A stretch of 64,000 nt of DNA from Moorena sp. SIOASIH (GCF_010671925.1 NZ_JAAHIH010000001.1:549053-613052); one strand, 5' to 3'; positions 1-29,211 are shown, numbered from the stretch's first letter. A program made the numbers and translations. The notes: generated from the letters alone by a model not told the origin.

Positions 1-64
1 AGCTATCCCCATGATAGCATTTTGGTAGACATCGAAAACAGCTTTTGCATCTGATACTTGGTAG

Positions 65-433
65 TTACGGATTAACATTTTTTTCTCGGATATCCCGATT
101 CCCGATTCCCGATTCCCGATTCCCGATTCCCGATTCCCATTTAGCCAAGGGTATCCAAGCAGCATCAGGGGAAAAACTTGCACCATTAGGCAGTGTAAAT
201 CCGCCCGATGAATCAAAGGTTATTCCTAATTGAGTTTGCCTATTCCATAAGTTTAACTCAAAATTAATATCTGAATTCCGCTTACTCGTTTCCCCTCCTG
301 TGGGTGGCATAATAATTAAGCCTCCTTTAGCAGTACGTTCTAATTTTAAATCACGGTTAGCGGCACAAAGTTGATAAAATTGCTCATTGGTGATTGGGGT
401 ATTTGGTGGATTGTTTAAAATTAATGGATTCAT
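65..433 (-). pseudogene. Uma2-family (DUF820) restriction-endonuclease-like protein, N-terminal half only. The ORF runs into a TCCCGAT heptamer tract and loses the C-terminal half.
   Basis: Translation matches the N-terminal core of Uma2-family proteins (…GGLIIMPPTGGETS…LGITFDSSGGFTLPNGASFSPDAAWI…). The C-terminal residues (ESGIGNRESGIGNR) are the heptamer repeat translated. A full Uma2 protein is ~190 aa. Confidence 0.5.
93..139. repeat. STRR-like heptamer tandem repeat (TCCCGAT)n
   Basis: Six to seven perfect TCCCGAT units, directly visible. Confidence 0.9.
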
Positions 434-3207: not shown

Positions 3208-3419
3208 GTAAGCATTCAGCTATCAGCTATCAGCTTTCAGCTATCAGCTTTCAGCTATCAGCTTTCAGCTTTCAGCTATCAGCTTTCAGCTTTCAGTCAT
3301 CAGTTTATGCGCTACGCGCACGCTACCCGAACAGCTTTTGAATAAAATAAGCTGACCGCTGACTACTGACTACTGACTACTTACGGCTGACCGCTGACCG
3401 CTGACCGCTGACTGCTTAA
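3208..3419. mobile_element. MITE-like palindromic element. It starts with GTAAGCATTCAGC, has (CAGCTAT/CAGCTTT)n at the 5' end and (GACTACT)/(GCTGACC)n at the 3' end, and its internal core is shared with the other copies.
   Basis: The 13-bp terminus is identical to the TIR of copies at 12578, 29837 and 61578. It contains the internal motifs TGCGCTACGCGCACGCTAC and TTTTGAATAAAATAAGCTGAC. The 3' terminus is degenerate (GCTGACTGCTTAA). Confidence 0.6.
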
Positions 3420-19496: not shown

Positions 19497-20800
19497 AGCC
19501 CCGTCCTTCTAGGACGGCTTTCTTTTTTTTGTGCTATACTTTTACGTAAAGTTGTCCCACGTCAAAAAATGAGAGTCTTAGAATTCAAGGTCGAAGGGAA
19601 GAAAACTCAATATGCTGCGATTGATGAGGCGATCCGTACAGGTCAGTTTGTCCGCAACAAGTGCATTCGGTATTGGATGGACAATAAAGGTATAGGGCAG
19701 AAAGACTTGTATCGCCACAACACGTGGCTAAGAGCTGAATACTCTTTTGTCAAAGATCTAAACTCTCATGCTTGCCAAGCTTCCGTAGAAAGAGCTTACT
19801 ATTCAATCTCTAGGTTTTACGATAAATGTAAAAAGAAAGTTCCCGGGAAGAAGGGATACCCTAAATTTAAAAACTTTTCTCGATCAGTTGAATACAAAAC
19901 ATCGGGATGGAAACTGTCCCCTGATGCTAAGTCAATAAATTTATTGGACAAGAAAGGGATTGGAAAACTGAAACTAAAAGGAACCTGGGAATTATGGCGT
20001 TATGATCAAAAGCTGATAAAGCGAGTTAGATTGGTGCGTCGAGCAGATGGGTACTATGTCCAATTTTGCGTCAAGGTTGATGTCAAGGAATCCTTGGAAC
20101 CTTCTCACACCAATATTGGATTGGACGTAGGAATCAAAGACTTTTATACAGACTCGAAGGGAGGCGTAGAGCCAAATCCTAGGTTTTATCGTAATGGAGA
20201 AAAGAGGCTAAAGTTTTATCAACGTAGGGTTTCTCGTAAAAAGAAAGGCTCAGCTAACCGCAAGAAAGCCATTAATAGACTAGGCAGGACACACCTCAAA
20301 ATAAGTAGGCAGCGTGAAGAGCACGCCAAGAGACTGGCGCGCTGCGTAATCCACTCTAACGATGTGGTCGCTTACGAAGACTTGAGAATTAAGAACTTAG
20401 TAAAGAACCATTGTCTTGCCAAGTCTATCAATGATGCAGGTTGGTACCAATTCAGAAAATGGCTGGAATATTTTGGTCAAAAGTTTGGGAAACAGACAAT
20501 AGCAGTAAATCCTGCCTACACTAGTCAAAATTGTTCCAGCTGCGGCAAAGTTGTCAAGAAATCACTATCAACTAGAACTCATACTTGTTCTTGCGGGTGT
20601 GTATTGGATCGCGACCACAATGCAGCAATAAACATTCTAAGAAGAGCCTTGGGTACGGTGGGGCACACCGGAACCTGGATCATAGATCCAAAAGCTCATG
20701 GAGAATCGACCTCTACTCTTCCTGGTTCCGGCCTGGCTGAGCAAGTTGGCTCGTTGAAGTGAGAATCCCCGTTCTTATAGGACGGGGAGTGTCAATATAC
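19497..20800 (+). mobile_element. IS200/IS605-family solo-TnpB element (IS1341-like, no tnpA) with subterminal hairpins at both ends
   Basis: Hairpin CCGTCCTTCTAGGACGG at ~19507-19523 and CCCCGTTCTTATAGGACGGGG at ~20768-20788 flank the tnpB ORF. The boundaries are approximate. Confidence 0.6.
19569..20762 (+). CDS. tnpB: RNA-guided endonuclease TnpB (IS605 OrfB family), apparently intact
   Basis: 397 aa. It has RuvC-I (IGLDVGIKD), RuvC-II (VAYEDLRIKNL), a zinc ribbon (CSSCG…CSCGC) and RuvC-III (DRDHNAAINI). Confidence 0.85.
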   Translation: MRVLEFKVEGKKTQYAAIDEAIRTGQFVRNKCIRYWMDNKGIGQKDLYRHNTWLRAEYSFVKDLNSHACQASVERAYYSISRFYDKCKKKVPGKKGYPKFKNFSRSVEYKTSGWKLSPDAKSINLLDKKGIGKLKLKGTWELWRYDQKLIKRVRLVRRADGYYVQFCVKVDVKESLEPSHTNIGLDVGIKDFYTDSKGGVEPNPRFYRNGEKRLKFYQRRVSRKKKGSANRKKAINRLGRTHLKISRQREEHAKRLARCVIHSNDVVAYEDLRIKNLVKNHCLAKSINDAGWYQFRKWLEYFGQKFGKQTIAVNPAYTSQNCSSCGKVVKKSLSTRTHTCSCGCVLDRDHNAAINILRRALGTVGHTGTWIIDPKAHGESTSTLPGSGLAEQVGSLK

Positions 20801-20897
20801 ACCCAATCACTCCTCACCGTTTACCCCTAACCACCGCAACCGGCTACAATAACAAGTGTTGAGATTTGTGTATCCCTGACCGGCATAGGGAAAGTTT

Positions 20898-21917
20898 ATG
20901 GCTGCTGCTGTATTAATCCAGAACCTCCAAAAACGCTATGGAGATGTCCACGCTGTCAAAGACATCTCCTTCCAAGTCGAACCGGGTCAAATTTTTGGCT
21001 TACTCGGTCCTAATGGTGCCGGGAAAACCACCACCATTCGTTGCCTATGCACTCTCACGGCACCGGACGCTGGAAAAATTGAGGTATCTGGCATTTCAGT
21101 ACTGAACAATCCTAGGGCAGCACGCCGCCGCATAGGCTATGTGGCACAAGAAGTTGCCCTAGATAAGGTACTCACTGGTCAAGAACTACTTCAATTGCAA
21201 GCCGACCTCTATCATATTCCCAAACCAGTTGCCAAAAAACGCATCAATAAACTCCTTGACATTTTGCAGCTCAAGGAGTATGCCCATAAAAAAACTGGCA
21301 TTTACTCCGGTGGTCTGCGTCGGCGGCTGGACTTAGCTGCTGGCTTACTCCACCAACCTGATGTTTTAGTGCTAGACGAACCCACCGTAGGTCTTGACAT
21401 AGAGAGCAGATTCGTGGTATGGAAACTGTTGCAAAAGCTGCGGGACTCAGGAACCACATTACTAATTACCAGCCACTACCTCGAAGAAATAGACGCATTA
21501 GCTGACCAAGTGGCAATTATTGACAAAGGGATGATCATAGCTGAGGGGACACCATCTCAGTTAAAAGATAGTGTTGGAGGCGATCGCATTACCCTGCGCA
21601 TCCGGGAATTCTCCCCCATTGAAGAAGCCCAGCAAGCCAAAGATATGCTTAAGTCTCTGCCCTTTGTGAAAGAGGTCATTATTAACAGCAATCAGGGGAA
21701 TTCCCTCAACCTTGTGGTTAAACCCCAAAGCAATGCCTTAATCATGGTTCAGCACGCCTTAAAAGACGTTAGTTTACCCACCTTTGGGATTGCTCAGTCG
21801 CGACCTAGCCTAGATGATGTCTATCTGGCCGCCACAGGTAAAACCCTGATGGATGCTGAACTGGCTGAGGCTGGGAAACGGGATTCGAAGGCAGAGCGGA
21901 AACAAAATATGGCCTAA
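20898..21917 (+). CDS. ABC transporter ATP-binding protein (ABC-2/DrrA-like)
   Basis: Walker A GPNGAGKTT, signature YSGGLRRRL and Walker B VLVLDEP, with a C-terminal extension. Confidence 0.85.
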   Translation: MAAAVLIQNLQKRYGDVHAVKDISFQVEPGQIFGLLGPNGAGKTTTIRCLCTLTAPDAGKIEVSGISVLNNPRAARRRIGYVAQEVALDKVLTGQELLQLQADLYHIPKPVAKKRINKLLDILQLKEYAHKKTGIYSGGLRRRLDLAAGLLHQPDVLVLDEPTVGLDIESRFVVWKLLQKLRDSGTTLLITSHYLEEIDALADQVAIIDKGMIIAEGTPSQLKDSVGGDRITLRIREFSPIEEAQQAKDMLKSLPFVKEVIINSNQGNSLNLVVKPQSNALIMVQHALKDVSLPTFGIAQSRPSLDDVYLAATGKTLMDAELAEAGKRDSKAERKQNMA

Positions 21918-27289: not shown

Positions 27290-27766
27290 TCATCCCACGC
27301 TCACGCTACGCTTTGAGACGTGGGATGAATTTTGTGCAGGGTCTTTGTTGCTCATCTCAGGAGTGTCTTGGTTTTCAATGTACTTTTTAAGAGTAGAAAT
27401 AGTAACGCCACCACAACTAGCAATAAAGTAAGAACTATTCCACAATACAGGTTTTTTGTAGTAGATTCTGGCTAGTTGTTCACCAAATTCTACTCTTATT
27501 TTTCGGCTTGAGACACTCTTCAATGAGTTAACCAGTTTACTCAGGTGAATGTCAGGGTGATACTGGAACAGCAGGTGAACATGGTCTTTTTCCCCATCAA
27601 GGCTAACAAGCGATCATTCTTGTTGTTCAAGTAAGTTTTCAAAAATTTCATGTAAACGGCTAATCATCTCACCAGTAAAGACTTTGCGACGATACTTGGT
27701 CGTCAAGACGAGATGAGCTTTAAGGTCAGAGACAGACCGACCCTTGGATAAAAAGTCATTCTTCAT
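27290..27766 (-). pseudogene. tnpA: IS200-family Y1 transposase TnpA with an in-frame TGA stop
   Basis: Minus-strand translation reads MKNDFLSKGRSVSDLKAHLVLTTKYRRKVF…EQQE-[TGA]-SLVSLDGEKDHVHLLFQYHPDIHLSKLVNSLKSVSSRKIR…SYFIASCGGVTISTLKKYIENQ. The HVHLL and Y motifs are present and the stop is in-frame. Confidence 0.75.
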
Positions 27767-27818
27767 AAAAATCCTGCTGTTGTCTGCTATAATCAGTGTA
27801 GCTTAAAAGTTAACACCA

Positions 27819-29211
27819 ATGAAATACACGTATCAATATCGACTATATCCAGAGACTCAACAAACACTCACACTGAACGAGTGGCTGCGAGTTGGTCGAT
27901 ATTGGTATAACCGGATGTTGGGTGAGCGTTTTGATTGGTGGGAGAAAAATAGATGTCCGGTCAATGCCTGTCCATTAATCTGTTACCTTCCGGAGCTTAA
28001 AGATCAGCCCAATTTATACAGCCAGAAAAAGCAACTTCCAGTTATCAAGAAAGACTTGGTTAAGATTGGATGGTCTGGAGAGTTGATAGACTTTACTGAG
28101 GTTTATTCAACTGTTTTGCAAGATGTCTGTACAAGAGTAAAAAACGCTTTTAACAGGTTTATAGCAGGTGACAAAAATGGTAAACGCAGTGGCAAGCCTC
28201 GATTTAAGAATGTTGCCAGATATCGGACGTTAAACTTTCCAAATGCTTATAATTCTTGGTTAAAGTTCTGTACTGTTAACGGAAAATGGTTGTTTGTTCA
28301 AGTTCCTAAAATTGGTTTGATTAAGCTGAGAATACACAGACCGTTACCTGATAGTGCAAACTTAAAACAGCTATCAATTACAAGGAAAGCTGACGGATGG
28401 TACTGCAACCTGAGCCTAGAGGATAAGTCCGTGCCGGAGTTCAACCCTGATGACATTATTCCTACTTGGGAAAACTCAATTGGAATGGATGCTGTTCTAG
28501 ATAGAGGCTTTTATCTAGCAATATCCGATGGCAAGAAACTCCCCTCGCTTAAACCACTTCGTCGGAATCAAGACAAGTTAACCAAAGTTTCTCAACGGAA
28601 AAATAAGCGTAAAAAAGGAAGTAAAGCCAGACGTAAACTAGCAAAACGGGAAGCCCGTATTCATCAACAGATAGCTAGGAGTCGTGAAGATTTCCAGTAC
28701 AAAACTGCTCATCAACTGGTGAATACAGGTAAGAAAGTCTTCTTTCACGAGAAGCTGAACCTCAAGGGTTTAACTCGTCGCAATACTCCTAAACGAGGGC
28801 GAGATGGTACGTTCTTATCCAATGGTCAATCATCAAAATCAGGACTTAACAAGTCTTGGCTAGATGCAGCCTTTGGTCAGTTCTTTGAAGTGCTGGGTCA
28901 GGTAGCCGCAAAAGAAGGGCGCCAGTGTAGTCGAAGTCAAGCCAAATTACACATCTCAACTCCTCTCTTATCGAGATGAATTTGTGTTCACCGACCGAGA
29001 TATGCGAGAGTATTTCGATGAGGAACTAAAGCTGATTGTCGATAGAGATGTCAACGCATCAATCAACATAAAGCGAGTCGGGCTGGATGTGTTCCCGACT
29101 ATAAAACGCCGTAGAGGGAAGCCTGTAGTTGTTGAATCTACTACTAATAGTACCTCGCAGGAAGCTCTGACCGCTCTTTATGAGCATCAGAAGCCCACAC
29201 TGAAAGCGTAG
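27819..29211 (+). pseudogene. tnpB: TnpB (IS605 OrfB) disrupted by a frameshift near 28925. The RuvC-III segment continues in another frame and no zinc-finger cysteines are seen.
   Basis: ORF1 ends …VAAKEGRQCSRSQ… . The alternative frame reads …VVEVKPNYTSQ…FTDRDMREYF… and joins the 28984 ORF, which carries DRDVNASINIKRVG. Confidence 0.7.

Follow-up and report, generated by a model that had tools for sequence, protein, structure and literature searches.

The 64-kb window of Moorena sp. SIOASIH DNA (the whole stretch that was analysed) contains a tnpB gene inserted between two host genes, and the question raised by this locus is what kind of element it belongs to, where that element begins and ends, and whether it encodes a guide RNA. 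The reading considered here as highly probable is that of a TnpB-only, non-autonomous IS200/IS605 (IS1341-type) element with an omega-RNA, which would work in the manner known from ISDra2, IS608 and the Geobacillus elements. The insertion lies directly 3' of a TTGAC pentanucleotide and has the following setting.

18502-19320, class-I methyltransferase gene, the upstream neighbour of the element
19480-20795, + strand, the element proper, 1316 bp, with ends set by comparison with 80 related loci
19569-20762, + strand, tnpB, 397 amino acids, with the RuvC residues D186, E270 and D349 and the zinc ligands C322, C325, C340 and C342
20898-21917, ABC-transporter ATPase gene, the downstream neighbour of the element

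The product of tnpB is a predicted protein of the RNA-guided endonuclease family. It is matched by the Pfam domains OrfB_IS605 (PF01385, 82.5 bits) and Cas12f1-like_TNB (PF07282, 82.4 bits) and by the NCBIfam model guided_TnpB (NF040570), whose cutoff of 100 bits it exceeds with 271.5 bits. TnpB of ISDra2 from Deinococcus radiodurans (8BF8/8EXA/8H1J) aligns with it over nearly the full length, with E=1e-39 for the single sequence and 9e-47 for the family profile, at an overall identity that is on the level of a distant homologue. Domain order, RuvC triad and four-cysteine zinc site are shared. D186, E270 and D349 align with D191, E278 and D361, which are catalytic in ISDra2 TnpB (PMC10097598), and the triad is invariant in 75/75 intact family proteins. 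The reading frame is of full length, without frameshift, and all catalytic residues are present. Thus, the intact, solo TnpB of 397 amino acids with unmutated RuvC motifs that had been proposed in the original prediction is borne out by the alignments. The zinc ribbon had been described as CxxC...CxxC; the four-cysteine site of the TNB domain does exist, and its cysteines are invariant in the 75 family proteins, but it reads C322xxC325...C340xC342, so that the second half-site is CxC instead of the CxxC found in ISDra2. Another nearby cysteine, C344, is variable among the same 75 proteins.

The limits of the element were mapped by blastn of positions 19200-21100 against 80 loci from cyanobacterial genomes. 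In dozens of genomes from many genera, the alignments begin at about 19475 and stop at about 20795, and copies with conserved ends, as had been anticipated, exist among the 80 loci. On the right side, 76 copies terminate in ...GGGGAGTGTCAA and have no common sequence beyond; the last bases, ...GAGTGTCAA, are invariant across these 76 copies and are followed by unrelated flanks. On the left side, the copies open with TTGAC, TTTAC, ATTAC, CTGAC, GTGAC or ATGAC, continue with CAAAAATTTGGG..., and are preceded by unrelated DNA, every copy sitting 3' of nT[G/T]AC. The left part of the locus is resolved into the following features.

19475-19479, + strand, the target and predicted TAM, TTGAC, flanking DNA that forms the first conserved bases in all copies
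19476-19479, + strand, the left cleavage site C_L, TGAC, outside the transposon, in the geometry of IS608
19480-19568, + strand, the left end (LE), which starts at +1 and extends up to but excludes the tnpB ATG; its sequence is conserved across about 50 copies
19480-19498, the 19-nt spacer from C_L to the CCCC foot
19495-19498, + strand, the left DNA guide G_L, CAAG, at +16 to +19, the position of AAAG in IS608
19501-19517, + strand, the LE subterminal hairpin IP_L, CCGTCC-TTCTA-GGACGG, with the stem 19501-19506/19512-19517 and the loop TTCTA
19519-19530, + strand, a T-run after IP_L, present in most copies, which together with the hairpin makes an intrinsic-terminator-like unit
19535-19540, + strand, a candidate -10 box, TATACT, with an upstream TG (TGcTATACT), as putative tnpB promoter

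The right end follows the coding sequence closely.

20763-20766, + strand, the right DNA guide G_R, GAAT, identical to that of IS608, in the sequence AGAATC, which is invariant in 76 copies
20767-20787, + strand, the RE subterminal hairpin IP_R, CCCCGTTC-TTATA-GGACGGGG, with the stem 20767-20774/20780-20787 and the loop TTATA
20792-20795, + strand, the right cleavage site C_R, TCAA, which closes the element and is identical to C_R of IS608

In IS608, the TTAC cleavage site is separated by 19 nt from the foot of the left hairpin downstream of it; 4-nt DNA guides located 5' of each hairpin, G_L AAAG and G_R GAAT, read the cleavage sites, the right one of which has the sequence TCAA, and a base pair joins A+16 to T-3 (PMC3201880, PMC5934647). 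The same architecture is found in the Moorena element, where the distance from C_L to the IP_L foot downstream is likewise 19 nt, G_L occupies +16 to +19, G_R GAAT stands directly 5' of IP_R, and C_R TCAA at the very end. The TTAC/AAAG combination of the Helicobacter pylori element is replaced by TGAC/CAAG in this copy, whereas the copies of the family with T at position -3 have exactly TTAC/AAAG. The distance from the end of C_R to the hairpin foot is 8 nt, compared with the 10 nt quoted for IS608, which further differs in having a tnpA gene and in lacking the T-run after the LE hairpin.

Positions -3 and +16 covary, G occurring with C and T with A, in 48/49 copies: G_L is CAAG or CAAT in all 37 nnGAC copies (two of them CAAT) and AAAG in 11 of the 12 nnTAC copies. 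Judged from sequence, this covariation is the A+16/T-3 pair of IS608 reproduced by natural variation. The -3/+16 pairing and the IS608 geometry thus place TTGAC outside the element, as its target and hence its TAM, and leave 19480-20795 as the element itself. The left start had been placed at 19497, which is wrong: the element starts 17 nt and its TAM 22 nt further to the left. The TAM, by contrast, could be derived from the LE-flanking sequences of the copies in the way foreseen, giving TTGAC here and nT[G/T]AC across the family. The boundary expected near 20795 on the right is exact and sharp, with unrelated flanks in the 76 copies, and puts the start of the guide at 20796.

The matching subterminal hairpins had likewise been recognized correctly, apart from coordinates that were a few bases off. 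For the LE hairpin, 95.7% of the cells of the alignment pair, compared with 25-50% when the pairing is slid, and compensatory changes are found in 5/7 pairs; the RE hairpin has them in 6/9 pairs. Together with the IS608-type guide and cleavage motifs of the family copies, these hairpins support the assignment to IS200/IS605-like ends. Within the window alone, the likeness of the two hairpins (19/22 identical positions) is not significant (E ~1). Across the family, the alignment score of the LE and RE hairpins is +5.2 for the own pair, +4.1 for pairs from different copies and -4.9 for shuffled sequences; the difference between own and other pairs has a permutation p=0.007, which is uncorrected for phylogeny. 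Terminal inverted repeats are absent, and imperfect palindromes lie subterminally at both ends, as required for IS200/IS605. The flanks, ...GGGGCTTGAC and TATACACC..., are without target-site duplication. The empty site would read ...GGGGCTTGAC fused to TATACACCC..., with a predicted junction of ...TTGAC joined to TATACACC...; a search of metagenome contigs with a 22-nt pattern, the left flank with TTGAC fused to the right flank, gave 0 matches.

The T-run had been located at 19529-19541, with the proposal that it is the terminator of the methyltransferase transcript; its actual position is 19519-19530. The LE hairpin and the T-run do score as terminator-like. As hairpin, T-run, -10 box and leader recur in copies at unrelated sites, they belong to the transposon, and the idea of a terminator of the methyltransferase gene's own was rejected, since the unit is conserved in transposon copies across unrelated contexts. 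The hairpin and T-run 3' of the methyltransferase gene were, accordingly, brought in by the transposon. They may stop the methyltransferase transcript or other read-through from upstream, and a candidate reading, if true, would make of them a dual-use module, being both the TnpA binding site and an insulating transcription terminator. Downstream of it, most copies have a TGnTAnAAT-like sequence at the box position (GTGCTACAAT, GTGTTATAAT and ATGTTAGACT are examples), followed by a conserved leader, ...ACGTAgAGTTtTtCCACGTCAAATG; it is this conservation that points to the box as a candidate tnpB promoter. A generic sigma-70 scan, which requires a -35 box, made no promoter call in the LE.

All testable defining features of TnpB and of IS200/IS605 ends are present, save tnpA. 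Within the element, tnpB leaves free only 89 nt upstream of its ATG and 33 nt downstream of its stop codon; there is no Y1 tnpA inside 19480-20795, and no room for one, and none was seen between LE and tnpB in the related copies. The absence of tnpA, a gene that ISDra2 does carry, places the element in the non-autonomous IS1341-type subgroup without loss of its IS200/IS605 membership, and a transposase would be needed in trans. The IS608-type ends and the -3/+16 covariation imply a Y1 TnpA as the enzyme that moves the family or did so in the past. A comparable arrangement is known from the IS1341 group and the ISGst-type elements of Geobacillus, in which tnpB and an overlapping omega-RNA lie between LE and RE without tnpA; these elements occur in many copies per genome, are presumed to be mobilized in trans, and have a TAM and transposon-encoded motifs that are clade-specific (PMC10055086). 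The Moorena element differs from them in its TnpB clade and its cyanobacterial host, and its mobilization in trans is presumed by analogy. The original claim that no tnpA is present, as in IS1341-type elements, is valid for the element. It does not extend to the window, which contains a decayed one.

27293-27765, - strand, a frameshifted Y1 tnpA, part of a second, decayed element 6.5 kb away

The lack of a transposase suggests another view of the present state of the element, namely, that of a fossil with intact ends and an intact ORF, for which no cognate TnpA is left and movement has ceased, TnpB and RNA being either inert or kept by homing and retention. It is consistent with the absence of tnpA in cis, with the frameshift in the only tnpA of the window and the affiliation of that gene to another element, and with the single copy of the element in 64 kb; self-BLAST, tblastn and nhmmer with LE and RE profiles detected neither further copies nor orphan ends in the window. 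The LE profile had the LE itself as its sole match there (E=4.6e-24). Its best non-self match was the RE hairpin, at E=0.15. The relatives point in the same direction: the nearest one, also from Moorena, has 91% protein identity and 84% DNA identity, and numerous small insertions interrupt several Moorena copies. Against this, the ORF of this copy is of full length, has every catalytic residue and is free of frameshifts; its sequence forms 43/43 pairs of the RNA model described below, and both sets of cleavage and guide motifs are intact. Moreover, about 75% of tnpB genes have no tnpA nearby and are thought to be mobilized in trans (PMC10055086). Cessation of movement is, on balance, possible but rather doubtful. 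It would bear on what the element does at present and not on what it is, and can be reconciled with the main explanation.

In the TnpB-only IS200/IS605 reading, the scaffold of an omega-RNA should be encoded by the last part of tnpB together with the RE. The RNA of ISDra2 is about 150 nt long and corresponds to the tnpB 3' end plus the RE, with its last ~16 nt derived from the flank and serving as guide (PMC8612924). The corresponding features in Moorena are the following.

20652-20795, + strand, the predicted omega-RNA scaffold, 144 nt with six helices
20652-20660/20666-20675, helix 1
20676-20681/20685-20690, helix 2
20695-20699/20759-20763, helix 3, containing the tnpB stop codon
20703-20710/20745-20752, helix 4
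20716-20726/20731-20741, helix 5
20766-20775/20780-20788, helix 6, which is the RE hairpin
20796-20811, + strand, the predicted 16-nt guide, TATACACCCAATCACT, flanking DNA, with its start given by the exact RE boundary

From the last 175 nt of 71 copies, RNAalifold derived a nested structure with double changes in 21/36 pairs. The six-helix model, which served as an explicit test, adds a TGGATC/GATCCA hairpin and the full terminal hairpin. Under this model, 96.0% of the cells form a standard pair, compared with 26-48% in six slid versions; compensatory changes occur in 26/43 pairs (7-15 in the slid versions), and the covariation score is 0.478, as against 0.211 for shuffled and at most 0.10 for slid alignments. 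Many of the model pairs, read on the + strand, are G.U in some copies and G-C or A-U in others; the complementary strand would have A.C mismatches at these places, so that it is the tnpB sense strand which folds. Folding stability relative to shuffles is in line with this orientation (z=-2.9 sense, z=-1.9 antisense). The minimum free energy fold of the single sequence differs from the comparative model, and the latter was preferred. The sense-strand fold over the last 144 nt is the predicted omega-RNA scaffold of a putative transcript, as had been expected of the tnpB 3' end together with the RE.

Compared with the 116-nt ISDra2 RNA with its four stems and a pseudoknot, the Moorena model comprises six nested helices in about 144 nt, with no pseudoknot detected. 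All-against-all column covariation revealed no ISDra2-like pseudoknot among the variable columns, invariant columns lying outside the reach of this test; the strong signals all fell within the nested model, and the remaining pairs were transition-only and looked phylogenetic. An Rfam 15 scan of positions 19000-21300 gave no match at E<=1, which is expected because the TnpB RNA models in Rfam cover only a small subset (PMC10055086).

The structure at the 3' end could, in principle, be maintained for reasons other than an RNA, either as DNA-level transposition hairpins serving TnpA only or through coding constraint. Helix 6 is the RE hairpin and is expected to bind TnpA, single-stranded DNA of the top strand allows G.T pairs as well, and helices 1-5 (20652-20763) lie within the coding sequence, overlapping the codons of the C-terminal tail ...ALGTVGHTGTWIIDPKAHGESTSTLPGSGLAEQVGSLK. 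However, IS608 TnpA requires only G_R, IP_R and C_R (PMC3201880), while helices 1-5 reach 115 nt further upstream, and the compensatory double substitutions alter codons yet keep the pairing, a pattern which is not expected from coding. In the solved ISDra2 structure, furthermore, this region forms the omega-RNA scaffold, and disorder is seen in the C-terminal protein segment that overlaps it (PMC10097598). An origin of the pattern in DNA hairpins or codons alone is therefore deemed very improbable, and the omega-RNA remains the preferred reading of the 3' end. As in ISDra2, its scaffold would overlap the tnpB 3' end and the RE, and its guide would come from flanking DNA.

The guide length of 16 nt is predicted by analogy with ISDra2 (PMC8612924). 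The 12-nt guide seed is unique in the window, and the guide flank is unrelated in every one of the 76 copies. This last observation is relevant to whether the protein might have been domesticated, either as a TldR-like RNA-guided repressor or as another factor recruited by the host. A regulatory role might be suggested by the solitary position of the gene between host genes and by a guide that points into the DNA preceding the ABC-transporter gene, which starts at 20898. A guide flank that is different in each copy, however, is the pattern of a mobile element and not of a fixed regulator; with a RuvC triad that is intact and invariant in the family, and with transposon ends that are complete down to the cleavage sites, recruitment by the host is still less credible than a DNA-level explanation of the 3' structure. 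An IS607-type element moved by a serine recombinase has next to no likelihood, for although TnpB occurs in IS607 elements also and the NCBIfam model IS607_TnpB (NF038280) gives 115.6 bits, this is below its cutoff of 350 and is surpassed by the IS200_TnpB model with 220 bits, and the subterminal hairpins, the exact IS608 guide and cleavage motifs with their spacing, and the guide-target covariation all speak against it.

For the TnpB-only IS200/IS605 element, the mechanism would be as follows, by extension from the work on ISDra2, IS608 and Geobacillus. Transcription would start from a promoter in the LE, and the transcript would extend into the flank, processing of its 3' part giving an omega-RNA with its scaffold at ~20652-20795 and its guide at 20796-20811. 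The complex of TnpB and omega-RNA would cut double-stranded DNA that bears TTGAC followed by a match to the guide. Such a sequence would arise only at the scarless donor joint, after excision of the top strand by a Y1 TnpA supplied in trans. Repair of the break from a sister copy would then restore the element, in the sense of homing and retention (PMC8612924, PMC10055086). The LE hairpin and the T-run would in addition stop read-through transcription from upstream.

The variation of the TAM within the family allows a closer look at its recognition by TnpB. The predicted TAM of this copy, TTGAC, is nearly identical to the 5-nt TAM of ISDra2, TTGAT. In ISDra2 TnpB, the -3 G is read by K76 and the -2 A by Q80 (PMC10097598). 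In a profile alignment, S66, H67 and Q70 of the Moorena protein correspond to K76, F77 and Q80, on the TAM-reading helix; H67 thus takes the position of F77, adjoining K76. The glutamine that reads the -2 A is retained as Q70, and both Q70 and the -2 A are invariant in the family, whereas K76 is replaced by a serine and it is N51 and H67 that track the -3 base instead. This was found by comparison of 48 family proteins from elements whose left end is defined, 36 from nnGAC and 12 from nnTAC copies. Only two of ~397 columns, N51 and H67, separate the G-class from the T-class proteins, N51 being changed to C or S and H67 to T, S or Q in the T class. The T class consists of two lineages, in each of which the switch has arisen independently; one of them has 82-87% identity to G-class relatives and differs from these consistently at the N51 and H67 columns only. 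The correlation suggests that N51 and H67 would contact the -3 base. Combined with the covariation at +16, it leads to a proposal of three-way coevolution, for which the chances are held to be about even: the -3 base (G or T) would be read by the +16 base (C or A) on behalf of TnpA, and by TnpB through N51 and H67.

The distribution of the family was assessed by a scan of one genome per species, in which 483 relatives were found, all of them cyanobacterial. A full-length copy with both ends, at 72% DNA identity, is located at positions 360000-361310 of plasmid alpha of Nostoc sp. PCC 7120 (WP_010999874.1). Like other family members, it carries the RefSeq label 'RNA-guided endonuclease TnpB family protein', and its annotation covers the CDS alone, without ends, TAM and RNA.

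Summarizing, the Moorena element is an ordinary, intact representative of a family of TnpB-only mini-transposons that is very common in cyanobacteria, and the current understanding of TnpB biology is unchanged by it. What has been gained is a base-accurate annotation of target, ends, scaffold and guide for an element in which pipelines merely label a 'TnpB family protein' gene, together with a well-resolved omega-RNA model that is not covered by Rfam and belongs to a family present in the model strain Nostoc PCC 7120. The leads worth keeping are the TAM-switch residues and this uncatalogued RNA model only. If N51 and H67 read the -3 G directly, a two-residue swap together with a change of one LE base would retarget both transposase and nuclease from TTGAC to TTTAC, and the natural switch between these TAMs, with its two candidate specificity residues, could serve the engineering of compact TnpB editors.

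Directly 5' of the focal TnpB-only element, the stretch 19349-19470 carries three tandem copies of the 11-nt unit TAGATTGAGTGTA, and clustered units containing CACGCTACGCGAA are found in the same stretch. Both kinds of repeat look similar to the very small dispersed repeats that occur in filamentous cyanobacteria. With up to two mismatches permitted, the window has 7 matches to the 14-mer CACGCTACGCGAAC where 0.08 would be expected, and small repeat units lie elsewhere in the window at positions 3319, 3963, 12623, 12670 and 35004. The segment 19384-19437 is found again in two of the Moorena loci used for comparison, L065 and L029, at 94-97% identity.

Units related to these upstream repeats, 24-48 nt in length (e.g., TTGACCGTAGGTCACGCTACGCGAAC), are also present within several Moorena tnpB copies. 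According to the family alignment, copies L007, L008, L015, L049, L063 and L076 carry them as in-frame insertions towards the 3' end of tnpB, inside the omega-RNA region, with the reading frame left intact. The loop of the left-end hairpin is the exact site of larger, MITE-like insertions of 120-250 nt in some copies (L005, L006, L008, L076, L021 and L037); these have inverted ends containing TAGTGGAGCCTT and AAGGCTCCACTA, respectively, and separate the hairpin arms CCGTCC and GGACGG.

A second IS200/IS605 element, which is distinct from the focal one and decayed, occupies window positions 27290-29211. It is composed of the following parts:
27290-27523 (-), tnpA ORF with the HUH motif (HVHLL) and the C-terminal half; Pfam Y1_Tnp, E=1.3e-11
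ATG near 27765 to stop near 27614 (-), N-terminal part of the divergent Y1 tnpA, in a frame different from that of the HUH/C-terminal half
27819-28979 (+), tnpB fragment 1, with HTH_OrfB_IS605 and OrfB_IS605
28984-29211 (+), tnpB fragment 2, end of the TNB/RuvC-III region
Its tnpB is split in two, the zinc-ribbon part is gone, and identity to the focal TnpB is 37% over 59 amino acids only. Right at the left end of the window, at 20-166 (-), tblastn gave a very weak, non-significant match to TnpB residues ~289-331 (33% over 49 amino acids, E=0.24).

The focal tnpB stops at a TGA (20760-20762) located six codons before the stop of most relatives (397 versus 403 amino acids). In the latter, the ORF continues into the right-end hairpin and is terminated by the conserved loop TAG (TTnTAGG; window position 20777-20779). 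The 397-amino acid length is common to the focal TnpB, L003 and L011, and the early TGA is also found in L003.

The element ends in the invariant pentanucleotide GTCAA (20791-20795), whose reverse complement is identical to the TAM, TTGAC (19475-19479). On the bottom strand, TTGAC is therefore followed by the interior of the element. Since the terminal GTCAA is unchanged in TTTAC-class copies, this complementarity is probably a coincidence.

Within the family alignment, TTGAC-type and TTTAC-type copies, which differ in TAM base -3, are fully separated by two TnpB columns only, and this in two independent lineages. In the focal TnpB, the corresponding codons are:
19719-19721 (+), N51
19767-19769 (+), H67
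H67 aligns adjacent to the residue of ISDra2 TnpB that reads the -3 G. N51 and H67 are candidate TAM-specificity residues.
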